Assembly (NCBI RefSeq): GCF_000497125.1
Contig: NC_090602.1
Location: 1,240,001-1,304,000, forward strand
DNA from: Spironucleus salmonicida
Lineage: Eukaryota
DNA: 64,000 bases
Direction of reading: 5' to 3'
The translations under genes and the position numbers were made by a program. Of the stretch, positions 19,250 through 64,000 are shown in pieces. A model generated the notes under the pieces. It was given only the letters and a program-made list of their open reading frames with translations. It was not told the DNA's origin and did no database searches. Position 1 is the first letter of the stretch. Each line of letters begins with the position of its first letter.

Positions 19250-19331
19250 CGTCACCTATGGGATTTGAACCCATGCGTACATAATACAATTGATTTCGAG
19301 TCAATCGCCTTAACCTCTCGGCCAAAGTGAC
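19250..19331 (-). tRNA. tRNA-Ser(CGA)
   Basis: The reverse complement GTCACTTTGGCCGAGAGGTTAAGGCGATTGACTCGAAATCAATTGTATTATGTACGCATGGGTTCAAATCCCATAGGTGACG folds as a cloverleaf with anticodon CGA, a long variable arm and discriminator G. Confidence 0.95.
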
Positions 19332-35604: not shown

Positions 35605-37794
35605 ATGGTAAACTACTAGTACGTCTTTAATGAAGCTAGTATGAATAATTATTATCCTTTAAATCAGTTGATTAACTATACTTTTACATTAGATGATTAT
35701 CACTAAGTTTATGAGTGTTTTAATAACTGTACATCTACAGATATAAAATTTATTATACTATCATTCCTTAATTCAAAGCTTGCTGGTAAAATAGCCTAAT
35801 AATTTGCCAAAACTATAACTAAGCTTAATATTAATTATGAGTTAAATGTACCACTCACTTAAGCATTAGGAAAGTTTATTTTTCGATCAAACTAACTTGG
35901 TGAGGTATAAATTGATATAGATAATTAAAATGTTATTTTAAGTGCATTATCATATAAATAAAATATAGATCTTTCCTTTTCTTCTCTCTGCTTCCCATTA
36001 GACAATATTTTTAAGGTGTAAGTTCTAAAAATAATTATCTCATAAGTTATGCTTACTCGAGAACAGCTTAACGAGTTAATTCCAGAAATTATAAATTTTT
36101 TACCTTAAACTAATTCTATTTTGGATGAAATTTTTCGAAAGAAAATGAATATTGTATTTTTAATGAAATTAGCACTAGCACTTCCAACTTATTAGCGTTT
36201 TAAGCAACTTTAGAATATGTTTGACTATTAATTTCTGATTTCTAAACCTGAAAAAGTTGCAAAATTATTTGAAGTGTTGAAAAATGATGTAATATGTTAA
36301 TTTACTTAGGATTTAGATACTGAAAATATTATAGATTTTTATCAATTTTTTGGGCAAATTTTCCATATTTTTAATCAAATTAAACTTACATGGTTTCAAT
36401 AAATTGCAGCATAATTTTTATTATAGACAGATTAGGTTCTATACCTCTCAGAACAGTCTTAATTCTTCTTTTAAGGTCTTTTTAAATATATACTAAATCA
36501 AGAAATTTTAGACTTAATGATATAACGTATTGATTAATATCCATTAGAAATTTAAATTTAAGTGTTTTGTAATTTATTCAGTTATGATCTTATTAACCAA
36601 AATGCATTAAATTGCTGTCTTCAAATTTTAACTGGAAACTTCCCGATCGAAACTACGAATTTCGCATGCTATTAACTTTGCTAAATGTCATAATCTAAAA
36701 ATCAAATCGATGCAAATATTATATTAAATGCATTTGTTATCTATCAAAGAATTCTAAGACAAAACTTTACTTAGATTTTTACTTTAAATGTATTTGAATA
36801 TTACGATTTTACGTAAACTACTATCTCAGGAGCTTTAAACTAACTATCAAAAGTCCTTTTAGGGTGCAAATAATGTGATTTTTAGCAAGCTATTTAAACT
36901 GAGATTTTATAAAATATATACTTTACGCCTCATGTAGCTCTGTTCAACTTCATTTCATTTTAGAGTAATATTCTAGATATTTTATCTCTTGATCTTCAAA
37001 ATCAATTACTAATTTATATTGTTTTGCTCACAATTTAAGCTCAGAATGACACAGAAAATTAATACTAAAAACCTGAAATATGTGATTTAGAAGAATACTA
37101 AATTGGATATATACTAAGTTTTCTGGCATCTTTTGAGTTCAACCCTGAGCTTCAAGAATTCGTTCTTTTTTTACTTAACAAATAAGTAAAAAATTAATTT
37201 ATAAGTGATTTATTAATCGAAAGTGTGTATGAGTTAATACCAAATCTAGTATACAACAAGAATGGGGATGTTTTAGTGCAAAATATCTGTATTTTAGTTG
37301 ATTTTTGTAAACGGTAGATAGTTTCTGACGATCTACTACGGGTGATAATGGAGTTGTATAATTTGAAAGATGACGAAATTAGTGTCCTTGAGTAAATTAA
37401 AATACTATTTAATAATGAGGTACTTTAGTATATGACAGAGATTCTTGGTAGCGAGGAGCCGGTGGTGCGGGTGTGCTTCAGCCTACTAGCAGGCTTCATG
37501 AATTTCGGGGTCGATGTTGCAGGGATTCTGAAGGGGTTGGTGTTAGGATTCTTGGAGAACAAGAACTAGGATAGCAGGCGGAACCAGTACGAAATTAGTT
37601 GCGTGCTGAGCTACCTAAAAAATGAGGATATCCTACTGGTTCTAGGCACAGCGCTGGAGGAGCACAAGGGCGCAATAGTAGGGTAGATAGCAGATATGCT
37701 TGAATGTATACTCACAATGACCTATGACAAGTTCGATCGGTAGACCGAGATTAAGCTGCTTCTTGAAAAAGTAAAGGGTATAGTATTATTATGA
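35605..37794 (+). CDS. Hypothetical helical-repeat (possibly karyopherin-like) protein, 729 aa
   Basis: Start and stop are in frame in code 6; amphipathic helical pattern. The last ~118 codons lie in the left arm of the inverted repeat. Confidence 0.6.
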
Positions 37795-37826
37795 TATGAG
37801 TTATATTGTCCTTCTACTTCCTAGCA

Positions 37827-38957
37827 ATGATCAACCATCTACCAGTGGCCATTGCGTTATTCATTCTTTTGAACTATATCGATCAGGTACAGTCCCTATA
37901 ACTTGGCAAGGACTATAGGGTGTATCTTTTTATTTTCATATCCCACGTTCTGCTCTGCGTGTACTACTCCAATCAGTTTAAATTAGCCAGGTACCCGTTC
38001 ATTAAGAAGATCGAGCTTAAAGTACTGGTATCCAGCCTGTTATTGGATCCCCTTTGGCTAGCTGAAATATTTAAACCAAATTTGGAATACTAGTCTATTG
38101 GCGCATTTGGTTTGTTTCTAATTATCAATGGTATGTTGTCATCAGATAATGTGATGTTCAGTATCGGATGTATGATACTACCTTCAGCAAATCCCCTGAT
38201 ATCTGTATTCACTTTGCTCCTGTTTTGGAAGGAGCTAGTACGCGCCCAAAAGATTAAATTAATATTACTATCGGCAATCTCACTGATTATTCACATATTT
38301 TATTTGAAAGATTTTAACCTAAACTATCTTGTAACGACAAAGAGCCAAGAATTCTGGCTGTACTACAAACTGTCCAGTACCAGATTCTAACCATACTACA
38401 GTTTGATCAGTATAACGCTTATTGGGGCTGTCCTTCTCTTGCGTAATAGGCGTATTCCGTAGATGCACAACCTTATTTACAAGCTTACGTTAATCTCCAT
38501 CATTCTCAAATCGATGTCCGTCTATAAATTCGACGCTTGTTTCCTACAGATCATCTTTTATTCTCTCACTTTGATCAATAAAAACCTATTCTTCATTCCA
38601 ATCTACTCTAGCTTTGTGTTTCTGGTCGTCTACCCGAAGATATACAAAAGTTGGAAAATTGGTATTGTAATCGCTGCGTCGTACGTCCTTTTCGTTGGAG
38701 TGTTAACACTTTTGTCAAGTTTTTACAAAAATCACATCTTCCGGTAGCAACGCATCTTAATGTTCTTGTTTTCGTTCCTACCAATCACCATAGTGGTGTT
38801 CTCCTTCTTTGGAGGAAATATAGTTCTGCTGATCCTTCAGGAAAGCTTCGAACTCTTCTACTTATTATTGATTTTCATCACAATATTAGTTATATACCTG
38901 ATTACTAATGGTGAGCAGGAGGAGTCTTTTTGGTAGAGCTCAGTGAGTGATTAGTGA
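37827..38957 (+). CDS. Multi-pass membrane protein, copy 1, 376 aa
   Basis: A code-6 frame joins supplied ORFs 38112 and 38463; many hydrophobic segments; ends TAG-TGA. Confidence 0.75.
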
Positions 38958-39025
38958 TAGTTATATTTCGAATCTTGAAATTCCATGTATTATACCCTAA
39001 CTACTGTAAAACTTAACTTTCCAGA

Positions 39026-39922
39026 ATGGATAGCGAACATTTTGATCTGCTCCGCTAGCAACACGAAGCCCGCTAGCTTTAACTTATGGCTGATATCAAT
39101 TAATTAAAATCTGAACTCGCTCATGAACGATCAGTGTCGGCCTAACTGAATAATTCGCTGATGACGCAGACAAACGCGCATGCTAATGATACATCGCAGC
39201 TATAGGCTTCCTTGGCAGCAGCACAACTTAGAACAGAGCAGCTTACCCAAATTAATACTGATAATAAAGCGGAACTTTACGACCTGCGAAACGAGCGACG
39301 AAACTCGTAGATGTAGCTTGATGCAGCTAGACATGAATTTTTCTCATTATAGCGGCAAAATTAAACGCAGAAAGAAGAATTAATTCGGATGCAATCTCAG
39401 TTTATGGAGAGATAGGGCGCATACGAGTCGAAAATTGAAACCCTTAAGGCCGCAATTAATGGAGTATCTGGGTTGAATAATTTTAGAAATGGCGGTTTCT
39501 CTGCTGCTGTTTCTGCACTTGTTGAATCTGGAAATGACAAAGAATTGTTTCTTGCAAAAATTGCTATGCTTACTAATTAGAATGACGAATTGCTTACGCA
39601 AAATGTGAAAAATGAAACCTAGATTAAGTAACTCAAAGTTAAGATCAAATAATATCAGCATTCTTTTGAAGGTAATAATGTCCCATCGGTGAAAATACTC
39701 ATGGAACAAGTGGAGTAACTTAATGAGGAGAAAGAAGTATTAGAGGACGAAGTGGATACGAAAGCCAAGAGGATGGTTAAAATGAAACATGATATTTAAG
39801 AGCTTATAAGCGAAAATAAGAAATTACGAGCTACTACTGTAGAAATGAAATAAAACTTCCGCAACCTGCAGGATATCCGAGAACAGATTCGGGAAATGAT
39901 TGATGACGAAATGAACGAATGA
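39026..39922 (+). CDS. Coiled-coil protein, copy 1, 298 aa
   Basis: MDSEHFDLLRQQHEARQ...IREMIDDEMNE; continuous heptad-rich frame. Confidence 0.8.
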
Positions 39923-41327
39923 TTAACTAAGCATGTCTACTACTGAGTTTTTCTATACTAATGCTCATTTGATAGAAATGTTATGGAAATAGTCCTAATA
40001 TTTCGGCAACAGGCTAAGATGACAAACTCACTATTTGTTGCAGATACACGAATATCTGGGATTTTCGGGTGATGTATGATTATAGAAGTGTTATTTATGT
40101 CTGTATACCAATTATTTTATAATTTTCACTAAGCTAAGTGAGCTAGCAGACTTAAATTAAAGAGTGTAACATCAATAAGATCGTAAAACATAAAATTTAT
40201 AGGCTTTAATGCACAATATATTATTTGAGTTTAAAATATTGCTATTATACAACTAGATTAGGAACTTTGAGATCGAAATTATTAGTTTGTTATATGAATA
40301 ATTAACCTTAAAGAATGATATTATACATCGATATATTGTATAGATTCACAAATTTTTATATTATTCATCTAATGTCTCTGTAATTATAACACTAATATAT
40401 TTTTAAATTATAATAGTCACTACCGAAAATATTGAGTAATATAGTACTATACACAATAAATATAAATAATAAGAAGATACTTATGGTATCAATTTTCTAC
40501 TATTCATTAAGAAAATACTATACTTTAAACATTATTACCATATTTATAGTCTATCTTAAATTTTACTATTTTAGTATAATAAATAACAATGCATATTTTC
40601 TATTTTTTAACTGTATATTGATTTGTATAATTTATTTACCGTTTATAATCCTTACAATCTATGGTAGCTAGTGATATAGTTTTATAAATCAATCATATGC
40701 TTTATAAAATCAATACCAAATTAATACTCTTATCTGTTGGATTTAAATTATTTGGGATATAACTTAGAATTTGGTAAATACATATTAGTAAAAACTTATA
40801 TTAACCACAGTGCACAAATTTCTGATAATCGTTCAAAAAAATAGAATTATTTTTATTTAATTAAGTGTCAGCGTTAACATTTTGATAAAGTATAATATAG
40901 ATTTGATAAATTTTTATATTTTATACTTATGATAGATAACTATTCATATAAATATTATTAATATATTGAATTCGGATACAAAATTAGACACTAATATCTA
41001 ATTATGCCTTAGATATGTAGTGTATTTCATTATCATCATCATAAAGTTGAGGCATATTATAATATGGTTTGAAACTAGTTTTCACAATGTATATCATATA
41101 AACCTATTAAAAAGATATAGTCTTTTATTATATGAAAAGTAATCAGTTTAAAAGGGTATATTACATATAATCATACATCACCCGAAAATCCCAGATATTC
41201 GTGTATCTGCAACAAATAGTGAGTTTGTCATCTTAGCCTGTTGCCGAAATATTAGGACTATTTCCATAACATTTCTATCAAATGAGCATTAGTATAGAAA
41301 AACTCAGTAGTAGACATGCTTAGTTAA

Positions 41328-42224
41328 TCATTCGTTCATTTCGTCATCAATCATTTCCCGAATCTGTTCTCGGATATCCTGCAGGTTGCGGAAGTTTTAT
41401 TTCATTTCTACAGTAGTAGCTCGTAATTTCTTATTTTCGCTTATAAGCTCTTAAATATCATGTTTCATTTTAACCATCCTCTTGGCTTTCGTATCCACTT
41501 CGTCCTCTAATACTTCTTTCTCCTCATTAAGTTACTCCACTTGTTCCATGAGTATTTTCACCGATGGGACATTATTACCTTCAAAAGAATGCTGATATTA
41601 TTTGATCTTAACTTTGAGTTACTTAATCTAGGTTTCATTTTTCACATTTTGCGTAAGCAATTCGTCATTCTAATTAGTAAGCATAGCAATTTTTGCAAGA
41701 AACAATTCTTTGTCATTTCCAGATTCAACAAGTGCAGAAACAGCAGCAGAGAAACCGCCATTTCTAAAATTATTCAACCCAGATACTCCATTAATTGCGG
41801 CCTTAAGGGTTTCAATTTTCGACTCGTATGCGCCCTATCTCTCCATAAACTGAGATTGCATCCGAATTAATTCTTCTTTCTGCGTTTAATTTTGCCGCTA
41901 TAATGAGAAAAATTCATGTCTAGCTGCATCAAGCTACATCTACGAGTTTCGTCGCTCGTTTCGCAGGTCGTAAAGTTCCGCTTTATTATCAGTATTAATT
42001 TGGGTAAGCTGCTCTGTTCTAAGTTGTGCTGCTGCCAAGGAAGCCTATAGCTGCGATGTATCATTAGCATGCGCGTTTGTCTGCGTCATCAGCGAATTAT
42101 TCAGTTAGGCCGACACTGATCGTTCATGAGCGAGTTCAGATTTTAATTAATTGATATCAGCCATAAGTTAAAGCTAGCGGGCTTCGTGTTGCTAGCGGAG
42201 CAGATCAAAATGTTCGCTATCCAT
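41328..42224 (-). CDS. Coiled-coil protein, copy 2
   Basis: Mirror of 39026-39922. Confidence 0.8.
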
Positions 42225-42292
42225 TCTGGAAAGTTAAGTTTTACAGTAGTTAGGGTATAATACATGGAATTTCAAGATTCGAAATATAACTA

Positions 42293-43423
42293 TCACTAAT
42301 CACTCACTGAGCTCTACCAAAAAGACTCCTCCTGCTCACCATTAGTAATCAGGTATATAACTAATATTGTGATGAAAATCAATAATAAGTAGAAGAGTTC
42401 GAAGCTTTCCTGAAGGATCAGCAGAACTATATTTCCTCCAAAGAAGGAGAACACCACTATGGTGATTGGTAGGAACGAAAACAAGAACATTAAGATGCGT
42501 TGCTACCGGAAGATGTGATTTTTGTAAAAACTTGACAAAAGTGTTAACACTCCAACGAAAAGGACGTACGACGCAGCGATTACAATACCAATTTTCCAAC
42601 TTTTGTATATCTTCGGGTAGACGACCAGAAACACAAAGCTAGAGTAGATTGGAATGAAGAATAGGTTTTTATTGATCAAAGTGAGAGAATAAAAGATGAT
42701 CTGTAGGAAACAAGCGTCGAATTTATAGACGGACATCGATTTGAGAATGATGGAGATTAACGTAAGCTTGTAAATAAGGTTGTGCATCTACGGAATACGC
42801 CTATTACGCAAGAGAAGGACAGCCCCAATAAGCGTTATACTGATCAAACTGTAGTATGGTTAGAATCTGGTACTGGACAGTTTGTAGTACAGCCAGAATT
42901 CTTGGCTCTTTGTCGTTACAAGATAGTTTAGGTTAAAATCTTTCAAATAAAATATGTGAATAATCAGTGAGATTGCCGATAGTAATATTAATTTAATCTT
43001 TTGGGCGCGTACTAGCTCCTTCCAAAACAGGAGCAAAGTGAATACAGATATCAGGGGATTTGCTGAAGGTAGTATCATACATCCGATACTGAACATCACA
43101 TTATCTGATGACAACATACCATTGATAATTAGAAACAAACCAAATGCGCCAATAGACTAGTATTCCAAATTTGGTTTAAATATTTCAGCTAGCCAAAGGG
43201 GATCCAATAACAGGCTGGATACCAGTACTTTAAGCTCGATCTTCTTAATGAACGGGTACCTGGCTAATTTAAACTGATTGGAGTAGTACACGCAGAGCAG
43301 AACGTGGGATATGAAAATAAAAAGATACACCCTATAGTCCTTGCCAAGTTATAGGGACTGTACCTGATCGATATAGTTCAAAAGAATGAATAACGCAATG
43401 GCCACTGGTAGATGGTTGATCAT
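42293..43423 (-). CDS. Multi-pass membrane protein, copy 2
   Basis: Mirror of 37827-38957. Confidence 0.75.
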
Positions 43424-43455
43424 TGCTAGGAAGTAGAAGGACAATATAACTCATA

Positions 43456-43821
43456 TCATAATAATACTATACCCTTTACTTTTTCAAGAAGCAGCTTAAT
43501 CTCGGTCTACCGATCGAACTTGTCATAGGTCATTGTGAGTATACATTCAAGCATATCTGCTATCTACCCTACTATTGCGCCCTTGTGCTCCTCCAGCGCT
43601 GTGCCTAGAACCAGTAGGATATCCTCATTTTTTAGGTAGCTCAGCACGCAACTAATTTCGTACTGGTTCCGCCTGCTATCCTAGTTCTTGTTCTCCAAGA
43701 ATCCTAACACCAACCCCTTCAGAATCCCTGCAACATCGACCCCGAAATTCATGAAGCCTGCTAGTAGGCTGAAGCACACCCGCACCACCGGCTCCTCGCT
43801 ACCAAGAATCTGCTGCCTCAT
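43456..43821 (-). pseudogene. Duplicated 3' fragment of the 35605-37794 gene, with an in-frame ATG just outside the arm (MRQQ-ILGSEEP..., 121 aa)
   Basis: Mirror of 37439-37794; ATG at 43819-43821 is in frame and an in-frame TGA lies upstream at 43837-43839. Confidence 0.55.
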
Positions 43822-48842: not shown

Positions 48843-51026
48843 TCAAGCGAACTGGATCTTCAAAATTCGAGCCAGCGACACTTTATAAATCTTGCTCGAA
48901 ATCGTCTCCAGAACGAGGAAAAAATTATGCTTCTGGTGGGGTTGCAGGGTGTTCAGTAGCGCTGTTAGCGGGGCGGCAGTGAGCGTTTTCCCCCTTTTTG
49001 GTGTTATAAAATAGCCGTTGGGTGCGGCGCGCGCATGCGGTTAAAAAGACGCCTCGATGCGGGGGACCTGAAATACAGTCTTTTGAACTTTTCCCATTTG
49101 GGGCAGTGCGCGTAATTCGTCAATGTCTCCGTCGTGTAAGTAAAATATGACAATTGCAATCAGATATAGCGCTATAGCGCAGGCGAATAAATCTTCACCA
49201 TAAATTGTTTACTGAAGGCTATACACGTAAATATCGTTCTCGGTTAAGTGGTAATTTCTGTGAATTTCGTGTATTTCGTGTTAAAAGGCGACTAAATTAT
49301 TATGTAAAATGTAATTTTAGAGAATAAAAGAAATTTCAAGATAATGCGGTTTTAACGTTGTTGGGTTGAAATTTGATAGGGGGATTATGTGCATCAGTGA
49401 TATTATAGAACTATTTATATATGGCTCTGTATTTAAAATATGAGCTATAAATGATGGCAGTAATTAAAAGTGATATGAGATAACTAGTTCAGGTGGAATT
49501 TAGTACATATTCTAAATTGATTTCGGAAATTTTAACATTTTACTTAGTACCGCAGCCTATGACTCTATAGTTTAGGAATTTAGATCAGTTGAAATCTCAT
49601 TAAATGCAGAACTAAGCATTGATTCAGTTAATCTTTTTGTAAAAAAAATATAAAGTATCTCTGAATGACTATACGTGGATAACACGATTCTTTAGATATT
49701 TTGTAAGCTTTATAGAGTTTAATGAATTTAATGTAATAATTCTTGCAAAGTTCTCTAGGTAGAATATTAATTCTTTTACTTTCGCATGCTATTACATAAA
49801 CTATATAAATTATATACTCACTTTAATAGTATCTAAATATTTTTAATGAAATATTCAAAATGGAACTTGTTATTAACATGCTTATTCAAAATTTAGATAA
49901 TTAGAAAAAGGTTATTTCGATCTTGCGAGTCCAGCTAATTTATTATCTATACAATACTTCCAATGGTGAATGTACTTTTAATATTTGTAACATTTATTTA
50001 CTAAAACAAATCACCAGACTATGTTATTTACTATTATTTTAATTAGATTATTGATTAAATATTCTAGTTTTGCTCTTAAAATACTTTAAAATATAATTGC
50101 TAATCATTTTTATTTGTTATTTCTTTAACTTATGATAGTTTCCCTCCAAGTAAATAAAAAATAACGATAGAAAAAATGAAGTATGCGCAACAACTCCTTT
50201 AAATAGAGATATCTCTTAATGATAGTGCTAATTCATAAATACAATAATTTTTTTTAGATAATTATAATGTTTCATAAATTTAATTTATTTATTATAAAAA
50301 TTAAATAATAAATGTATGTCTCAGCGTTTTTGACAAAATGTAACTTATTTCTAAATAATGTTTTCTTTAGTAGCATACAGATAACTATAAGGGTCGTAAT
50401 AATGTGATTAGAAATGATGTTTCATATTTTACCCGACTTTATTTTTATTATAAGAAATATAATGTCTATGGGAAAATTTATAACTGAAATGATAGTAATA
50501 ACTCTGGTGTAATCTATAGTTGTAAATTTTCTTTTATAGTATATTATGGAATTGTGATATACGATGGAAGATAAGTTAAAAGATTTGTTATTATTTTAGG
50601 ACCACCTTGCATAATTTTGAATCTAAGTTCTGAAATTGCAATTCTAAGACTATCCTCTGGAATTAACTCTTATAAAATAGATTCTAGAAATATATTTCCT
50701 TAAATTTAGTGCTTTAATAATTATATTTTTTCTATAATTTATTCTACTTATGGTAACATATTGAGTGCATATTTTATAAGTACTGTCGGTTTCAATTATT
50801 TTGATGCGGTCTTTTTGGTTCTGATTTTTCGGACAGATTCTGTCTATATTTAATTCATCATTTTCAACTATATGTTTTATAAAGTTGTTAAAATTGTTAC
50901 TTATTCTTAAGAAACAACATGTTCTTAAGATTCAAATGCCTAATTACAATTAAGACAAATAATGCTAGTCATATCATCTGATATTTTCGTATTATTTGAA
51001 CCACAATTACTGCATGTTGAATTCAT
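48843..51026 (-). CDS. TFIIB-type zinc-ribbon protein, probable TAF1B/Rrn7-like, 727 aa
   Basis: N-terminal CSNCGSNNTKISDDMTSIICLNC, helical body, C-terminal HNFFLVLETISSKIYKVSLARIL. Frame was checked in several blocks. Confidence 0.55.
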
Positions 51027-51103
51027 TCTTTTCTGCTGAAATTATATATAATATTATATAAATCTAATTACATTCGACTCTCCGTTTTAATCAAATCCAC
51101 TAA

Positions 51104-52771
51104 ATGTTAATTCCATCTACTACCTATGCCACTATTTCTAAGATTAATGGACCTCTTGTTACTATCACAGGAGTTAAAAACCCAACATATGGAGAAATAG
51201 TGAACGTTTTATTACCTGATGGTACCAAACGTACTGGTAAAGTGCTTGAAACTTTAGAAGATAAGGCTGTAGTCTAAATTTTTGAAGGTACTGAAAAGTT
51301 AGATATACTAAACTCTAAAGTTGAACTTACTGGTGAACTTATGTAGATTGGTGTTTCTAAACATATGTTAGGTAGAGTATTTGATGGTTAGGGTCGTCCA
51401 ATTGATAATGGTCCTGAAATTATTCCTGAAATGTATTTAGATGTTGAAGGTGCTTCAATCAATCCTTGTAAACGTGTTTATCCCAAATAAATGATTTAAA
51501 CTGGTATATCTTGTATTGATGTCATGACATCTATTGCCCGTGGCCAGAAGATTCCTTTATTCTCTGGCTCTGGTTTGCCTCATAACGAAGTAGCAGCTTA
51601 AATTTGTCGTTAAGCTAAGCTTGTTGATGTTGATGGCCGCAAAGCTGGTTCTGGTGATGATAATTTTGCTATCGTATTTGCTGGTATGGGTTTAACACAT
51701 GAAGCTGCTCGCTTTTTCTAGGAGAATTTCACATAATCTGGTGCTATTTAGCGTACTATTTTATTTTTAAATACTTCTAATTCTCCTACAATTGAACGTA
51801 TCATGACGCCTCGTTTAGCTTTAACTACTGCTGAATTTTTAGCATTTACACATAATTATCATATATTAGTTATTCTTACTGATATGACCTAATACGCTGA
51901 TGCAGTTCGTTAAATTTCAATCTAAAAATAAGAGTTACCTGGTCGTAAATCTTATCCTGGTTATTTATATACTGATTTAGCTTCTATTTATGAGCGTGCT
52001 GGTAGAATTGATCAGAATAACTGGTTTTTAGGTATCAGAAACGGGAACGATGTTTAGTAAATTGGTATGATTAATACTAATTCATTTAAAGTAGAAAATA
52101 TTAAGGTTAACATGCATCATATCTATTAATTATAAAAGGATGGTAAAATTGAACTCAAAGATACTGCTACTGATGAAGATGTTAAAGTCGAAAAGATAAC
52201 TGAATTTACAGATTTCGAAGCTTTCAACAAAGATCCTACTTAATATAAGAATTTAATTATTTATTCTAGAAAGAATGAAAATTCTGGCTCAATCACCTAG
52301 ATCCCTATTTTAACACTGCCAAACGATGATATTTCACACACTATTCCCGATTTAACTGGTTATATTACTGAAGGTTAAGTTTTTGTTTCTCGTAAACTAT
52401 CAAATATGGGGTTGTATCCTTGTTTAGATCCCCTACCTTCTCTCTCACGTTTAATGAAGTCAGCTATCGGTGAAGGTATGTCTAGAAAAGACCATCAAGA
52501 TGTTTCTAACTAGTTATATTATTGTTATGCTTTAGCCTAGGAAGTATAAAACATCAAATAAATTGTTGGTGAGGACGCTCTTAGCGCTGATGATAAAATC
52601 TATCTTGCATTCTTAAATGAGTTTGAGACTAAATTCCTCAAACAAGGTTAGTTCGAAGATAGATCTATTTAAGAATCTCTTGACATTGCATGGGGAATCC
52701 TTAGAATGTTCCCTGAAAGACTTTTGTAACGTATTCCAAATGACATTATCGAATAATTTTACAGAAAGTGA
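51104..52771 (+). CDS. VMA2: V-type ATPase subunit B with an internal insertion, 555 aa
   Basis: [72 protein letters not shown]. Confidence 0.96.
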
Positions 52772-52870: not shown

Positions 52871-54100
52871 ATGAAAATTAAACCATAAAAACGCTTATTA
52901 ATTCATATTTAGAATTAGTTTTACCAATATTTTTCAAATCAACAGATTCAGAATCTGTATTTTATCATTAATGGCGAACATACAAACTCGGCCTTAATGA
53001 TTTTTCTTCTCCAAAATTTCAATGCTAAACAGCAAAAGCAGTTCACTCTAACAGTTTCCGGAGACCAAATCACCCAAGAAGCCTCACTGATAGTTGAAAA
53101 TTATCACCTGGCACTTACACCTAATATACCTCCTGAAAACGCACTGTACGTCTCCCTGCTCAGCAAAAATGCCTTAATTACTAGTTTTTTGGATCAAATT
53201 TTTGAAAAATCTCACTTTTACCTCTTTTCATAGATTTCCGACATAGAGCTCTAGGAGCAGGCCGAACAGGCCGATTTCAGTTTCACGGCGATGCCCTTCA
53301 CGCCGTTTATGGAGAAGTCCGTCCATGTCAACTATTCGGTGATCTCTAATCTACAGAAGTCACTGATAGCATTCTAGCTGTCCAAACCGGTCAAAATTGA
53401 GCCATTTTACCGCTTCCCAGAGCCGCTGGGAGGTGTCCCTCCCGCACTGCTGAACTCAGCCTGCCGCATTTTATCAACCGCGCAACCTCAAAAAAAGACG
53501 ATTCTGGTCGCTTTTTCTGGTGGAAAAGACTCCGCGGCGACGTATCTAACGTTACAGGCATTGCAGCCCCGCTTCGATTTTGCTCTCAAGGCACAGCTTT
53601 TCGACCCGCAGCTGCCGGGATTTTCGACGGAAAGGGTGCAGAAAGTGGCTGATTATTTCGGAATTCCACTCGAAATCGTGACTAAAAAGGTTGTCCCGCA
53701 GGACTTCTCGTTATGCGCCTCATGTGCTCGCGCGCGGCGAATTGCGCTCCTGGAGTCCAGACCAGCGTTTCTAGCGCTTGGTCACCATCTAAAGGACTCG
53801 GTAGAGACCATTTTGATGACCGGAATGCACAATGGCGCTTTTTTTCCGCTCCGGGGACTATACACCCCGGAGATCGACGGGGTGGACGGGGAGACGCGAG
53901 TGATCCGGCCGCTGCTGGACTGCACGCAGGGGGACGTGCTGGCATTCACCGGTGCGTTCGCGGTGGAATTCGTGAGCTCCGACGCAGCCGAGTGCGACTT
54001 CGCTGCACGGGGAGGTGGAAAGGAGAGCGAAAGGGGGAGAATCCGGCGGTTCCTAGACGGGCGCGACTACGGCTGGTTCGCGGAAATGGGCTATGAATGA
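52871..54100 (+). CDS. PP-loop ATPase, TtcA-like tRNA thiolation enzyme with an N-terminal extension, 409 aa
   Basis: ILVAFSGGKDS, DPQLPGF, LCASCARARR, LALGHHLKDSVET and VIRPL; the frame joins supplied ORFs 52997 and 53561. Confidence 0.8.
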
Positions 54101-54113
54101 GAAACGGGTACAA

Positions 54114-54464
54114 TCACTTGTTGGAGGAATACTTGGAGATGGCAGACTCGGCGTGAGACTGGGCGGCCTTGTAGAGCTCACCACCGTTAAGCACGAGTTT
54201 GGCGGCAGCGGTGATCTGGGACTTACCAATGGTGTTACGGTGGTGCTGTCTGGCGATCTGGGAGGCTTCGGAGGCGATTCTCTCGAAGAGATCGTTGACC
54301 ATGGAGTTCATGGCGGCCATGCACTGCTTGGAGACACCACAGTCAGCGTCCTTGCCCTGGAAGGCATCAGAGGCCTTGAGAACCTTGAGGATGTAGGTAC
54401 CATAGGTCTCTACTCTCTTCATCTTACGGGTAGCTTTGGCTTCAGGGGCGGATCCAAGGGACAT
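54114..54464 (-). CDS. H2B: Histone H2B, copy 1
   Basis: KRVETYGTYILKVLK, MNSMVNDLFERIASEAS, AKLVL.GEL, AISKY. Confidence 0.95.
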   Translation of the reverse strand: MSLGSAPEAKATRKMKRVETYGTYILKVLKASDAFQGKDADCGVSKQCMAAMNSMVNDLFERIASEASQIARQHHRNTIGKSQITAAAKLVLNGGELYKAAQSHAESAISKYSSNK

Positions 54465-54691
54465 TTTAAATAGTGGAGTGGAAATGCCAATCTAGGCACC
54501 TGGGCCTAGTCACTTGCGCAGGCTCACTTTTGCGAAATCACTATACTCCACATTATTATATTGCATATACCTCGTATACTCGGGAGAAAGCGAAATAGCC
54601 CAAAGATGGCTGAGTCTACTTTTGTGTACACTTCATCCTACAACGGCGACTTAATGACTTCGCACCTAGGCAGGCAGCCTCCAGTGGTCAG

Positions 54692-55531
54692 TCAGATAGC
54701 ACGATCTCTGATGCTCTACCACGCCATTAACTCACAAATCACGCTGCCGGCGACACACCTGGCGCGCGTGCTCAAGGTGTACACGAACGCAGCATCGCAT
54801 AGCGGGTCGATTTCACACAGCAGCTGGTTCTTTAAGACTACAGCCCCTGTCTCAAGTAGACCTAACAGCAGTCCAGATACAGGCGCACATACGCTGAGCT
54901 GGCCTCGGCGATGGGTCACAGCATCCATTTTTCGGTTGAGGCACTCGCCGGACTCTGTCTACAGGCCCCCCTCATCAGACTCAATGACTCCTATCGGGTC
55001 TCCTATTTTTACAAACTCTCCAATCCCTCGTTTTGCTGTCCACCTCCCGCCGATCTCAGCGCGGGCCTCGCGTTCGAATGAATATCCACCGATTAGCTCT
55101 GGCTCCGACATTTTCTACTGTTTCTAGCGTGTTCCCGCATAGCGCCCCGACTTTTAGATTACAATACTGGCCGTTAGACCCTCTATTCCCCAATTGGTTG
55201 AAATTGTCACCCCTTGGAATTTGAATTGGGTGGGTGCGGTGTTAACAACAATATCATATTAGATATCGGATAGAAACTTAGACGAACTCGTCAAAACCGG
55301 TATAATATTGTCCACTAGGGCCTTGTTAAGCTGTTCTAGCGTCGTTACCCGACGTGCAGTTACCCCCTCTACCTCGAATCCTCCTACAAAAACCGCTTAG
55401 CAAAAGCTTTTCATTCGCTTTAGCGAAGTGGGATGATCTAGTTCTAGGCAGAATGCTGTGATTTATAACCGGGACAGGTAGATGGTCACGGCAGTGCCAA
55501 CCTCTCCCGCACCGATTACAAGGACTCTCAT
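54692..55531 (-). CDS. yqeB: YqeB-family protein (selenium-dependent molybdenum hydroxylase system), copy 1, 279 aa
   Basis: MRVLVIGAGEVGTAV, LELDHPTSLKRMKSFCQAV..VEGVTARR, PELIGGYSFEREARA, IGEFVKIGDPIG, APVSGLLLGLL, EIDP, ARCVAGSV. Fully translated in code 6. Confidence 0.85.
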
Positions 55532-56149
55532 TCGAAATAATATATGAATCAATATATAATAACGGCTTCCACTTACATCTGAAATTAAACATAGAATGCC
55601 TGCACATTCACTGCAATGATTTCCACCATTATTGACTCCTATGTACAATTCAACGATGCAAAATTCTATCCCACAAATTGATTTTATTATCCGTTGATTG
55701 TGTTAGCTCAACTTTGTTACTGCATTTAAGTCTTATAGGCAACATTGTTGAAGCCCTTAATATTTGTGAAGATTTGAAGCCATGATCGTAATTTCACATT
55801 AGTAACTAACGCAATAGTGTCCTTTTAGGCTTATAGAAATATATGATATATAGAAAACAAATGACAGGTGGTTCCAGTTAAAATAATGGCCTTAATTTAT
55901 ATTTAAGCTTCATACTGGAGAAAAGTTAGAGTTTTTCATTTTATTTATTTATACTAGCCGTTTATGAAATTTATATCGTACTCCTGACTGGCACTCGTAA
56001 TTTTCGATATTTAATCATCATTTTATCTGTGCCTCCAATGATAGAGCTTAAACACTACTGTTACATTTTTTGTTCTTTGGCAATTTTCTCAAACCGATGA
56101 ATTTATCCTGCTACACACCTTCACACCCTCAGCATCAGTTGAGGAGCGC

Positions 56150-56350
56150 GTGATCCGGCCGCTGCTGGACTGCACGCAGGGGGACGTGCTGGCATTCACC
56201 GGTGCGTTCGCGGTGGAATTCGTGAGCTCCGACGCAGCCGAGTGCGACTTCGCTGCACGGGGAGGTGGAAAGGAGAGCGAAAGGGGGAGAATCCGGCGGT
56301 TCCTAGACGGGCGCGACTACGGCTGGTTCGCGGAAATGGGCTATGAATGA
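56150..56350 (+). pseudogene. 3' fragment of the TtcA-like gene at the array junction (also 58400-58600, 60650-60850, 62900-63100)
   Basis: Identical to 53900-54100; no in-frame ATG back to the upstream in-frame TGA. Confidence 0.8.
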
Positions 56351-56363
56351 GAAACGGGTACAA

Positions 56364-56714
56364 TCACTTGTTGGAGGAATACTTGGAGATGGCAGACTCG
56401 GCGTGAGACTGGGCGGCCTTGTAGAGCTCACCACCGTTAAGCACGAGTTTGGCGGCAGCGGTGATCTGGGACTTACCAATGGTGTTACGGTGGTGCTGTC
56501 TGGCGATCTGGGAGGCTTCGGAGGCGATTCTCTCGAAGAGATCGTTGACCATGGAGTTCATGGCGGCCATGCACTGCTTGGAGACACCACAGTCAGCGTC
56601 CTTGCCCTGGAAGGCATCAGAGGCCTTGAGAACCTTGAGGATGTAGGTACCATAGGTCTCTACTCTCTTCATCTTACGGGTAGCTTTGGCTTCAGGGGCG
56701 GATCCAAGGGACAT
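56364..56714 (-). CDS. H2B: Histone H2B, copy 2
   Basis: Identical to copy 1. Confidence 0.95.
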   Translation of the reverse strand: MSLGSAPEAKATRKMKRVETYGTYILKVLKASDAFQGKDADCGVSKQCMAAMNSMVNDLFERIASEASQIARQHHRNTIGKSQITAAAKLVLNGGELYKAAQSHAESAISKYSSNK

Positions 56715-56941: not shown

Positions 56942-57781
56942 TCAGATAGCACGATCTCTGATGCTCTACCACGCCATTAACTCACAAATCACGCTGCCGG
57001 CGACACACCTGGCGCGCGTGCTCAAGGTGTACACGAACGCAGCATCGCATAGCGGGTCGATTTCACACAGCAGCTGGTTCTTTAAGACTACAGCCCCTGT
57101 CTCAAGTAGACCTAACAGCAGTCCAGATACAGGCGCACATACGCTGAGCTGGCCTCGGCGATGGGTCACAGCATCCATTTTTCGGTTGAGGCACTCGCCG
57201 GACTCTGTCTACAGGCCCCCCTCATCAGACTCAATGACTCCTATCGGGTCTCCTATTTTTACAAACTCTCCAATCCCTCGTTTTGCTGTCCACCTCCCGC
57301 CGATCTCAGCGCGGGCCTCGCGTTCGAATGAATATCCACCGATTAGCTCTGGCTCCGACATTTTCTACTGTTTCTAGCGTGTTCCCGCATAGCGCCCCGA
57401 CTTTTAGATTACAATACTGGCCGTTAGACCCTCTATTCCCCAATTGGTTGAAATTGTCACCCCTTGGAATTTGAATTGGGTGGGTGCGGTGTTAACAACA
57501 ATATCATATTAGATATCGGATAGAAACTTAGACGAACTCGTCAAAACCGGTATAATATTGTCCACTAGGGCCTTGTTAAGCTGTTCTAGCGTCGTTACCC
57601 GACGTGCAGTTACCCCCTCTACCTCGAATCCTCCTACAAAAACCGCTTAGCAAAAGCTTTTCATTCGCTTTAGCGAAGTGGGATGATCTAGTTCTAGGCA
57701 GAATGCTGTGATTTATAACCGGGACAGGTAGATGGTCACGGCAGTGCCAACCTCTCCCGCACCGATTACAAGGACTCTCAT
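56942..57781 (-). CDS. yqeB: YqeB-family protein, copy 2
   Basis: Copy 1 + 2250. Confidence 0.85.
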
Positions 57782-59191: not shown

Positions 59192-60031
59192 TCAGATAGC
59201 ACGATCTCTGATGCTCTACCACGCCATTAACTCACAAATCACGCTGCCGGCGACACACCTGGCGCGCGTGCTCAAGGTGTACACGAACGCAGCATCGCAT
59301 AGCGGGTCGATTTCACACAGCAGCTGGTTCTTTAAGACTACAGCCCCTGTCTCAAGTAGACCTAACAGCAGTCCAGATACAGGCGCACATACGCTGAGCT
59401 GGCCTCGGCGATGGGTCACAGCATCCATTTTTCGGTTGAGGCACTCGCCGGACTCTGTCTACAGGCCCCCCTCATCAGACTCAATGACTCCTATCGGGTC
59501 TCCTATTTTTACAAACTCTCCAATCCCTCGTTTTGCTGTCCACCTCCCGCCGATCTCAGCGCGGGCCTCGCGTTCGAATGAATATCCACCGATTAGCTCT
59601 GGCTCCGACATTTTCTACTGTTTCTAGCGTGTTCCCGCATAGCACCCCGACTTTTAGATTACAATACTGGCCGTTAGACCCTCTATTCCCCAATTGGTTG
59701 AAATTGTCACCCCTTGGAATTTGAATTGGGTGGGTGCGGTGTTAACAACAATATCATATTAGATATCGGATAGAAACTTAGACGAACTCGTCAAAACCGG
59801 TATAATATTGTCCACTAGGGCCTTGTTAAGCTGTTCTAGCGTCGTTACCCGACGTGCAGTTACCCCCTCTACCTCGAATCCTCCTACAAAAACCGCTTAG
59901 CAAAAGCTTTTCATTCGCTTTAGCGAAGTGGGATGATCTAGTTCTAGGCAGAATGCTGTGATTTATAACCGGGACAGGTAGATGGTCACGGCAGTGCCAA
60001 CCTCTCCCGCACCGATTACAAGGACTCTCAT
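59192..60031 (-). CDS. yqeB: YqeB-family protein, copy 3 (Arg to Cys variant)
   Basis: Copy 1 + 4500; G>A at 59644 changes CGC to TGC. Confidence 0.85.
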
Positions 60032-61441: not shown

Positions 61442-62281
61442 TCAGATAGCACGATCTCTGATGCTCTACCACGCCATTAACTCACAAATCACGCTGCCGG
61501 CGACACACCTGGCGCGCGTGCTCAAGGTGTACACGAACGCAGCATCGCATAGCGGGTCGATTTCACACAGCAGCTGGTTCTTTAAGACTACAGCCCCTGT
61601 CTCAAGTAGACCTAACAGCAGTCCAGATACAGGCGCACATACGCTGAGCTGGCCTCGGCGATGGGTCACAGCATCCATTTTTCGGTTGAGGCACTCGCCG
61701 GACTCTGTCTACAGGCCCCCCTCATCAGACTCAATGACTCCTATCGGGTCTCCTATTTTTACAAACTCTCCAATCCCTCGTTTTGCTGTCCACCTCCCGC
61801 CGATCTCAGCGCGGGCCTCGCGTTCGAATGAATATCCACCGATTAGCTCTGGCTCCGACATTTTCTACTGTTTCTAGCGTGTTCCCGCATAGCGCCCCGA
61901 CTTTTAGATTACAATACTGGCCGTTAGACCCTCTATTCCCCAATTGGTTGAAATTGTCACCCCTTGGAATTTGAATTGGGTGGGTGCGGTGTTAACAACA
62001 ATATCATATTAGATATCGGATAGAAACTTAGACGAACTCGTCAAAACCGGTATAATATTGTCCACTAGGGCCTTGTTAAGCTGTTCTAGCGTCGTTACCC
62101 GACGTGCAGTTACCCCCTCTACCTCGAATCCTCCTACAAAAACCGCTTAGCAAAAGCTTTTCATTCGCTTTAGCGAAGTGGGATGATCTAGTTCTAGGCA
62201 GAATGCTGTGATTTATAACCGGGACAGGTAGATGGTCACGGCAGTGCCAACCTCTCCCGCACCGATTACAAGGACTCTCAT
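61442..62281 (-). CDS. yqeB: YqeB-family protein, copy 4
   Basis: Copy 1 + 6750. Confidence 0.85.
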
Positions 62282-63691: not shown

Positions 63692-64000
63692 TCAGATAGC
63701 ACGATCTCTGATGCTCTACCACGCCATTAACTCACAAATCACGCTGCCGGCGACACACCTGGCGCGCGTGCTCAAGGTGTACACGAACGCAGCATCGCAT
63801 AGCGGGTCGATTTCACACAGCAGCTGGTTCTTTAAGACTACAGCCCCTGTCTCAAGTAGACCTAACAGCAGTCCAGATACAGGCGCACATACGCTGAGCT
63901 GGCCTCGGCGATGGGTCACAGCATCCATTTTTCGGTTGAGGCACTCGCCGGACTCTGTCTACAGGCCCCCCTCATCAGACTCAATGACTCCTATCGGGTC
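63692..64000 (-). CDS. yqeB: YqeB-family protein, copy 5 (5' part lies beyond the window end)
   Basis: Copy 1 + 9000, cut by the window edge. Confidence 0.8.

Follow-up and report, generated by a model that had tools for sequence, protein, structure and literature searches.

The minus strand of positions 54692-55531 in the stretch of Spironucleus salmonicida DNA studied here (64,000 nucleotides of contig NC_090602.1; hereafter, the window) very probably carries a real gene whose identity lies within the YqeB family (TIGR03309/EF2563), a family of bacteria and archaea apart from its diplomonad members. The gene is read in the code of its host and is repeated, together with a histone H2B gene, in a tandem array of 2,250-bp units. 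In the explanation that we favour, to which we give about an even chance of being right, a laterally acquired YqeB gene was amplified along with H2B and encodes a protein that is folded but diverged. The presence of a YqeB-type gene in a diplomonad has been known since 2014 and, hence, is itself not a new finding. What is added here is that (i) the H2B tandem unit would explain the multiple identical copies of the YqeB-like gene; and (ii) the conserved core of the family is much lost in the copy of this organism, but not in those of Hexamita.

Reading frame and genetic code

Positions 54692-55531 on the minus strand, when translated under NCBI table 6, encode 279 residues and end in TGA. The frame contains eight in-frame TAA/TAG codons (at Q23, 45, 91, 126, 136, 139, 191 and 272), which represent 8 of the 14 Gln codons of the gene, and no internal TGA, so that the intact 279-aa minus-strand protein of the original prediction, with TAA and TAG as Gln, is recovered in full. 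It was likewise correct that a standard ORF view shows two fragments beneath a misleading antisense ORF: with table 11, the minus strand yields only fragments (54716-54928 and 54959-55111), and a plus-strand ORF of 188 aa (54561-55127) overlies them. By contrast, the gene can hardly be called hidden, as was then claimed, since an identical 279-aa protein is already present in a public protein collection, in a cluster of five members on one 1.61-Mb contig.

The surrounding sequence is that of a eukaryote in which TAA and TAG are read as Gln, as had been proposed. The window holds long intron-free code-6 ORFs (TPR/IFT-like, WD40, AAA, ankyrin, kinase and V-ATPase subunit B), and 29 of the 33 Gln codons of the V-ATPase B gene are TAA or TAG. 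The YqeB-like gene and its neighbours share the diplomonad (Hexamitinae-type) code, in which TAA and TAG are sense codons and TGA is the only stop.

In such a code, open frames are cheap. Approximately 0.04 of random frames of matched composition and equal length lack TGA, and a 447-codon frame on the plus strand (54093-55436), antisense to both H2B and the YqeB-like gene and recurring each 2,250 bp, is also open in code 6, an illustration of the ease with which a code with TGA as sole stop produces long false ORFs. The remaining two minus-strand frames over the locus contain eight TGA codons each, versus none internal to the YqeB-like frame. Openness by itself is weak evidence for the gene and, therefore, it is homology that must support the gene call.

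Some other features of the window deserve mention. The gene for V-ATPase subunit B (50936-52771, plus strand) has an insertion of around 100 aa that splits the nucleotide-binding domain; its homologues mostly align over about half of the protein, and one protein with 80% identity can be aligned along its whole length. An inverted repeat without any mismatch (100%), with arms of 2,646 nt at 37439-40084 and 41166-43811 and a spacer of 1,081 nt, could reflect either a true palindromic duplication or an artefact of the assembly; each arm holds code-6 ORFs of 376 aa and 298 aa with no Pfam match. Finally, a tRNA-Ser(CGA) at 19250-19331 (minus strand) is the sole RNA family match in the window.

Family assignment

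The homology is clear. The profile TIGR03309 (YqeB) matches the protein with an E-value of 8.1e-31 and 107.4 bits, and is the sole family below E 0.01 (the runner-up has an E-value of 0.06). An exhaustive phmmer search of 1.84 billion representative sequences returned 599 proteins with E<=1e-3, of which 107 have E<=1e-10. In the alignment to 58 homologues, residues 1-279 are aligned in a single frame with no frameshift, at 25-33% identity, and six invariant columns as well as 13 of the 19 near-invariant ones are kept. The protein is, then, as the original prediction had it, a YqeB homologue; all the motifs listed in that prediction are present and align with bacterial YqeB proteins, and the insertion reported ahead of the APVSG motif is found at about residues 185-212, with a length of around 25 aa.

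Two levels of membership in the family must be distinguished here: (i) at the level of homology, the similarity is significant and full-length, TIGR03309 being the best and only match; (ii) at the equivalog level, the protein stays below the curated cutoff (107.4 bits versus 220 bits). The Pfam scan of the 279-aa protein gave nothing significant, including no XdhC match. Similarly, a sequence search of the PDB with the protein gave no match below E 0.06, and no solved structure of any YqeB family member was found by sequence search.

The protein resembles the bacterial YqeB/EF2563 proteins (e.g., those of Oscillospiraceae and Clostridioides difficile) in its length, in its Rossmann-like N-terminal half with GxGxxG, in the order of its motifs and in a C-terminal barrel like that of biotinyl carriers. 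It differs from them in its low identity (25-33%), in its score against the family profile (107 bits versus 266-343 bits for four typical bacterial homologues, P0042, P0069, P0075 and P0078), in the absence of the central motifs and in its location, in a eukaryotic H2B array instead of a purine or molybdenum-hydroxylase locus. A further point of reference is provided by the XdhC-type molybdenum cofactor insertion factors: many bacterial YqeB homologues bear the JGI label "xanthine dehydrogenase accessory factor", and archaeal YqeB is described as fused to an XdhC-like half (PMC2276186). The window protein, in contrast, has neither a Pfam XdhC match nor a fused XdhC half.

The tandem array

The YqeB-like gene is part of a head-to-tail tandem array of 2,250-bp units which extends from position 53900 to the end of the window (64000). 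The array was detected by means of a repeat search and a script; the period is exactly 2,250, with 0-1 mismatches per unit past the left junction. Four full copies of the YqeB-like gene and a partial one lie in the window, all on the minus strand: copy 1 at 54692-55531; copy 2 at 56942-57781, with an identical protein; copy 3 at 59192-60031, in which a G>A change at 59644 causes the substitution R130C on a conserved Arg; copy 4 at 61442-62281, identical to copy 1; and copy 5 at 63692-64000, of which the C-terminal 102 codons and the stop, identical to those of copy 1, fall within the window.

Each unit also contains a histone H2B gene of 116 aa (copy 1 at 54114-54464, minus strand; Pfam Histone, E 2.7e-13), and the copies that start at 56364, 58614, 60864 and 63114 are identical to it, so that all five agree. 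The YqeB-like gene is situated 227 bp upstream of H2B in the same orientation. Between the YqeB-like stop and the ATG of H2B lies a spacer (54465-54691) with a C-rich element, the sequence TATTTAAA and an A-run directly before that ATG. On the other side of the YqeB-like gene, a 618-bp AT-rich spacer (55532-56149; GC 0.325) lies upstream of its ATG, with a TATA-like sequence at most 35 nt from that ATG and an in-frame upstream ATG at 55783. The host-like AT-rich promoter that had been predicted is recognizable in the TATA-like AT-rich stretch ahead of the ATG.

The third coding component of the unit is a remnant. A PP-loop (TtcA/TilS-like) gene lies at 52871-54100 on the plus strand (Pfam ATP_bind_3, E 1.2e-12; NCBIfam TtcA, 71 bits; the TtcA/TilS scores are below cutoff), and this is its sole full copy in the window. 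Its last 67 codons or so (53900-54100) open each repeat unit and recur as dead fragments, for instance at 56150-56350. As regards the PP-loop protein itself, the AT-rich N-terminal half holds all six TAA/TAG codons and the GC-rich C-terminal ATPase domain none; a word-based search for relatives gave the protein itself and one weak match; and RNA-like contigs begin at 52881-52884, just within the called ATG, so that the true start may be further downstream.

Raw reads are consistent with the array. In a DNA run, which is perhaps the source of the assembly itself and, hence, not independent of it, a contig of 2,280 nt closes on itself (from 56140 to 53896), and word depth is 94.6 in the unit versus 12.8 in the unique flank, which suggests an array of about seven copies. 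The cluster of five proteins on one contig in the public collection would point to five. Contigs of the DNA and RNA-like runs join the unique flank to the unit, and the unit-to-unit joint is seen in three of the four runs.

Since one gene in the unit is a dead fragment and another, the histone gene, is very highly represented, the YqeB-like copies can be regarded as passengers of H2B amplification. Judging from this content of the unit, the identity of the copies is best explained by hitch-hiking with H2B, not by selection for YqeB dosage.

Transcription

Evidence for transcription comes from three RNA-like runs of one study, whose nature as RNA is a guess. In all three, contigs span the whole YqeB-like ORF (54346-56140, 54370-55958 and 54101-55867). 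One of the runs has cover over the single-copy PP-loop gene and none over the multi-copy spacer past 55958; the lack of coverage of a multi-copy spacer argues against plain DNA carry-over. From this strandless contig cover it can be said that the YqeB-like region is probably transcribed. Ahead of the YqeB-like ATG, the contigs continue for a further 336-427 nt, a distance that includes several other ATGs; of these, the in-frame one at 55783 would yield a protein of 363 aa.

In Spironucleus, the UGA in AGTGA has been described as terminating translation and also signalling polyadenylation, the 3' UTR being some 13-14 nt long (PMC2874811, PMC3916229). The H2B gene agrees with this rule: in the three RNA-like runs, a poly(T) loose end is found at 54101, i.e., 13 nt past the AAGTGA stop. 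Upstream of H2B there are a C-rich element, a TATA-like element and an A-run, element types that are reported for S. salmonicida promoters (PMC3916229). In the RNA-like runs, the depth of H2B exceeds that of its neighbours by factors of tens to hundreds; the depth figures of the region, being averages over H2B-containing contigs, are contaminated by H2B. The YqeB-like gene ends in ATCTGA, not in the AGTGA of the Hexamitinae stop/poly(A) signal, and no poly(T) loose end is listed near 54679, after its stop, although contigs cannot prove an end absent. An AAGTGA on the minus strand at about 54500-54515, some 180 nt 3' of the YqeB-like stop and within the upstream spacer of H2B, could, to judge by its sequence, serve as a late poly(A) signal for the YqeB-like transcript.

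Divergence, conserved core and predicted fold

With regard to the family, the window protein appears from the alignment to be the most diverged member examined. Of seven comparators scored against TIGR03309, six pass the cutoff, with 266-343 bits, and the bacterial P0117 falls short of it, with 203 bits. From 80 single-domain homologues, 52 columns conserved in at least 80% of the sequences and 26 conserved in at least 90% were defined. The window protein retains 32 of the former (homologues, 34-52; median 48) and 18 of the latter (homologues, 20-26; median 25), the lowest retention of the 81 sequences. The lowest bacterial homologues are near, with 34 and 36 of the 52 columns, and the erosion would thus be relative, not absolute.

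The losses cluster in the polar core; the scaffold positions (Gly, Pro and hydrophobic residues) have been spared. Using motif labels coined from this alignment (KRN, GPG and ETxRGHxLGR), the changes are as follows: the K of KRN is deleted; GPG is now NWG; a TAA-encoded Q occupies the position of E126; ETxRGHxLGR has its RGH segment deleted; Leu has replaced each of R223, K237 and R244; and SDK is now STR. We know of no residue in the YqeB family with a demonstrated role.

The AlphaFold2 model reaches a pLDDT of 88.2 and a pTM of 0.86, with low confidence only near residues 111-140 and 190-210; it was built on the family alignment and, in this respect, its fold is not evidence independent of homology. 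The model has the two-domain architecture of YqeB, a Rossmann-like half plus a barrel, and Foldseek places its C-terminal half close to biotinyl-carrier barrels (TM 0.76-0.86, normalised to the target). This barrel match echoes the resemblance between C. difficile YqeB and AccB (PMC11448449).

Two consequences would follow from these observations. As there are no frameshifts despite approximately 70% divergence, a folded protein would have been under selection for most of the history of the gene; and because the conserved core is altered, the ancestral activity would have been changed or lost.

Origin and relatives in diplomonads

A lateral origin is the natural reading because the YqeB family is otherwise bacterial and archaeal. 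The original prediction of lateral acquisition followed by domestication into the host code is in line with this distribution and with the reading of TAA/TAG as Gln in the gene.

A diplomonad YqeB was already in print. The S. salmonicida genome paper (PMC3916229, 2014) mentions "three identical homologs" of a gene unique to prokaryotes with orphan SelD, previously undetected, according to that paper, in any eukaryotic genome; it cites Haft and Self (2008) and Zhang et al. (2008) and speculates on selenocysteine-independent use of selenium. The marker of Haft and Self is TIGR03309/YqeB (PMC2276186). Although the main text of PMC3916229 gives neither sequence nor gene identifier, it is strongly suggested that its gene is the one at 54692-55531: both concern a diplomonad that reads TAA/TAG as Gln, both belong to one family, and several identical copies exist in each case. 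Differences are the number of copies (three there; here four full and one partial in the window, and around seven by DNA depth) and the fact that its passages on selenium metabolism mention no H2B tandem unit and no lost family motifs. The same organism is reported to have a bacterial-type SelD-NifS fusion (PMC3916229, PMC6397501) and, alongside it, selenocysteine machinery and three selenoprotein W genes (PMC3916229, PMC6397501, PMC2874811).

Two further eukaryotic proteins come from Hexamita inflata, CAL6019453.1 (P0070) and CAL6032496.1 (P0339), which are near-identical paralogues annotated as YqeB family. P0070 is the second-best match to the window protein (E 4.2e-20; in BLASTP, 29% identity over 286 columns), and with 272 bits the two paralogues exceed the cutoff of TIGR03309. 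They share with the window protein the diplomonad host and the family, but they keep GLGP, ETNRGHDLGR, RGL, DPRG and DK and do not have the 25-aa insertion. With these proteins and the homologs of 2014 on record, the earlier statement that no characterised eukaryotic example was known is not supported.

Literature searches added little: (i) for YqeB, selenium and eukaryotes, no paper about a eukaryotic YqeB, judging by titles and the beginnings of abstracts, and one paper on Lokiarchaeota and eukaryotic selenocysteine systems; (ii) for diplomonads and molybdenum hydroxylase, only PMC3916229; (iii) for Spironucleus and molybdopterin, unrelated papers only; (iv) for Hexamita inflata and selenium, none on YqeB by title; and (v) for molybdenum utilization in eukaryotes and Giardia, one unrelated paper. 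In the text of the H. inflata genome paper, the terms selen, molybd and YqeB do not occur.

The relationship between the two diplomonad lineages can be read in more than one way. No terminal branch in the tree is longer than that of the window protein (2.18 versus a median of 0.88). In quick free-search trees, it groups with a divergent clade that includes the Pseudomonadota-MAG proteins P0117, P0134 and P0208 (SH-aLRT 92 and 86). A tree in which the window protein and the two Hexamita proteins were held as a clade has a log-likelihood 21.8 above that of the short free search and is not rejected (p-AU 0.775). Rare residues in common with the window protein number 7 for Hexamita, 11 for P0117 and 11 for P0134 (median 5; maximum 11), and give no clear preference to either placement. 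It is possible that a single acquisition took place in the diplomonad ancestor, followed by fast divergence in the present lineage, or that there were two acquisitions.

What the gene may be doing

One reading may be discarded at once. Bacterial contamination or an assembly artefact might be thought of in view of the bacterial character of the family and of the GC content of the region (0.47-0.50, versus 0.20-0.35 over most of the window). Nevertheless, the same 2,250-bp unit contains a eukaryotic histone H2B, the YqeB-like ORF requires the host code, other host genes of the window are equally GC-rich (WD40, 0.47; H2B, 0.56), and contigs of the DNA and RNA-like runs show the flank-unit join, with the unit-unit joint in three of four runs. 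On these grounds contamination is rejected, and its probability is virtually negligible. More serious is the possibility that function was lost once the gene had been transferred, and that the gene survives as a decaying passenger solely by virtue of its place in the amplified H2B unit, with a frame that stays open since TGA is the one stop of the host. The frequency of TGA-free random frames (about 0.04) and the open 447-codon antisense frame are compatible with such decay, and so are the lowest retention of conserved residues among 81 sequences, the longest branch, the dead gene fragment in the same unit, the ATCTGA stop context, unlike the AGTGA signal of the host, and the R130C substitution of copy 3 at a conserved Arg. 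Yet the 279 codons have been maintained without a frameshift through around 70% divergence, the other two minus-strand frames carry eight TGA codons each against none internal here, the predicted fold is confident, and the changes have affected polar positions and spared the Gly, Pro and hydrophobic scaffold, a pattern that points to selection for a folded protein. Decay is, on balance, somewhat unlikely.

At the opposite end, the protein might be a working YqeB and, in consequence, reveal a third, selenocysteine-independent selenium trait, namely the labile-selenium maturation of a molybdenum hydroxylase. Its homology to TIGR03309 speaks for this, as do the restriction of the prokaryotic family to selD-positive genomes (as reported in PMC2276186), the SelD-NifS fusion of S. 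salmonicida, whose genome paper raised the idea (PMC3916229), the need of C. difficile for YqeB in selenium-dependent growth on xanthine and urate (PMC11448449), and the canonical YqeB of H. inflata, with its 272 bits. On the other hand, the window protein does not reach the curated cutoff (107 versus 220 bits) and has lost the K of KRN, GPG, E126, the RGH segment, R223, K237 and R244. By this comparison of sequences, the sub-cutoff score and the lost core residues would weaken the pathway reading. The 23 window ORFs scanned against Pfam include nothing molybdenum-related, and none of YqeC, YgfJ/MocA, XdhC, Moco synthesis or an XDH-family hydroxylase was found among them; in the main text of PMC3916229, the terms xanthine, purine, moco and aldehyde oxid do not occur, and molybd appears once, in the title of a reference. 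We consider this reading quite unlikely, and a canonical YqeB pathway role in this organism seems doubtful.

The explanation that we favour, that of a diverged but folded protein, lies between these two. A bacterial YqeB (TIGR03309/EF2563) gene would have been acquired laterally by a diplomonad and would now be a nuclear gene, read in the host code with TAA or TAG at 8 of its 14 Gln codons. A 2,250-bp segment comprising the tail of the PP-loop gene, H2B, the YqeB-like gene and the AT-rich spacer would have been tandemly amplified, the YqeB-like copies being multiplied as hitch-hikers of H2B. The protein would keep the two-domain fold, i.e., the Rossmann-like GxGxxG half and the biotinyl-carrier-like barrel, with its conserved polar core largely replaced or deleted. 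It would still be made and folded; any activity that it has would be that of a ligand-binding accessory protein in diverged form, perhaps still tied to the selenium branch with SelD-NifS that has been described in S. salmonicida, and probably not that of a canonical maturase of selenium-dependent molybdenum hydroxylases. This functional part of the explanation is put forward tentatively.

Significance for selenium biology

Of the ways in which cells use selenium, the one that YqeB marks is the least understood, and so is YqeB among the markers of that route. The S. salmonicida/Hexamita pair combines, within diplomonads, a copy with a much altered core and copies that retain it and, therefore, offers a natural comparison for learning which residues of YqeB matter. 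It is conceivable, though very unlikely, that the diplomonads S. salmonicida and Hexamita practise a SelD-dependent, selenocysteine-independent use of selenium via a laterally acquired YqeB, rebuilt in the present organism for a target other than a classical molybdenum hydroxylase. If true, eukaryotes would thereby gain their first case of third-trait selenium biology.
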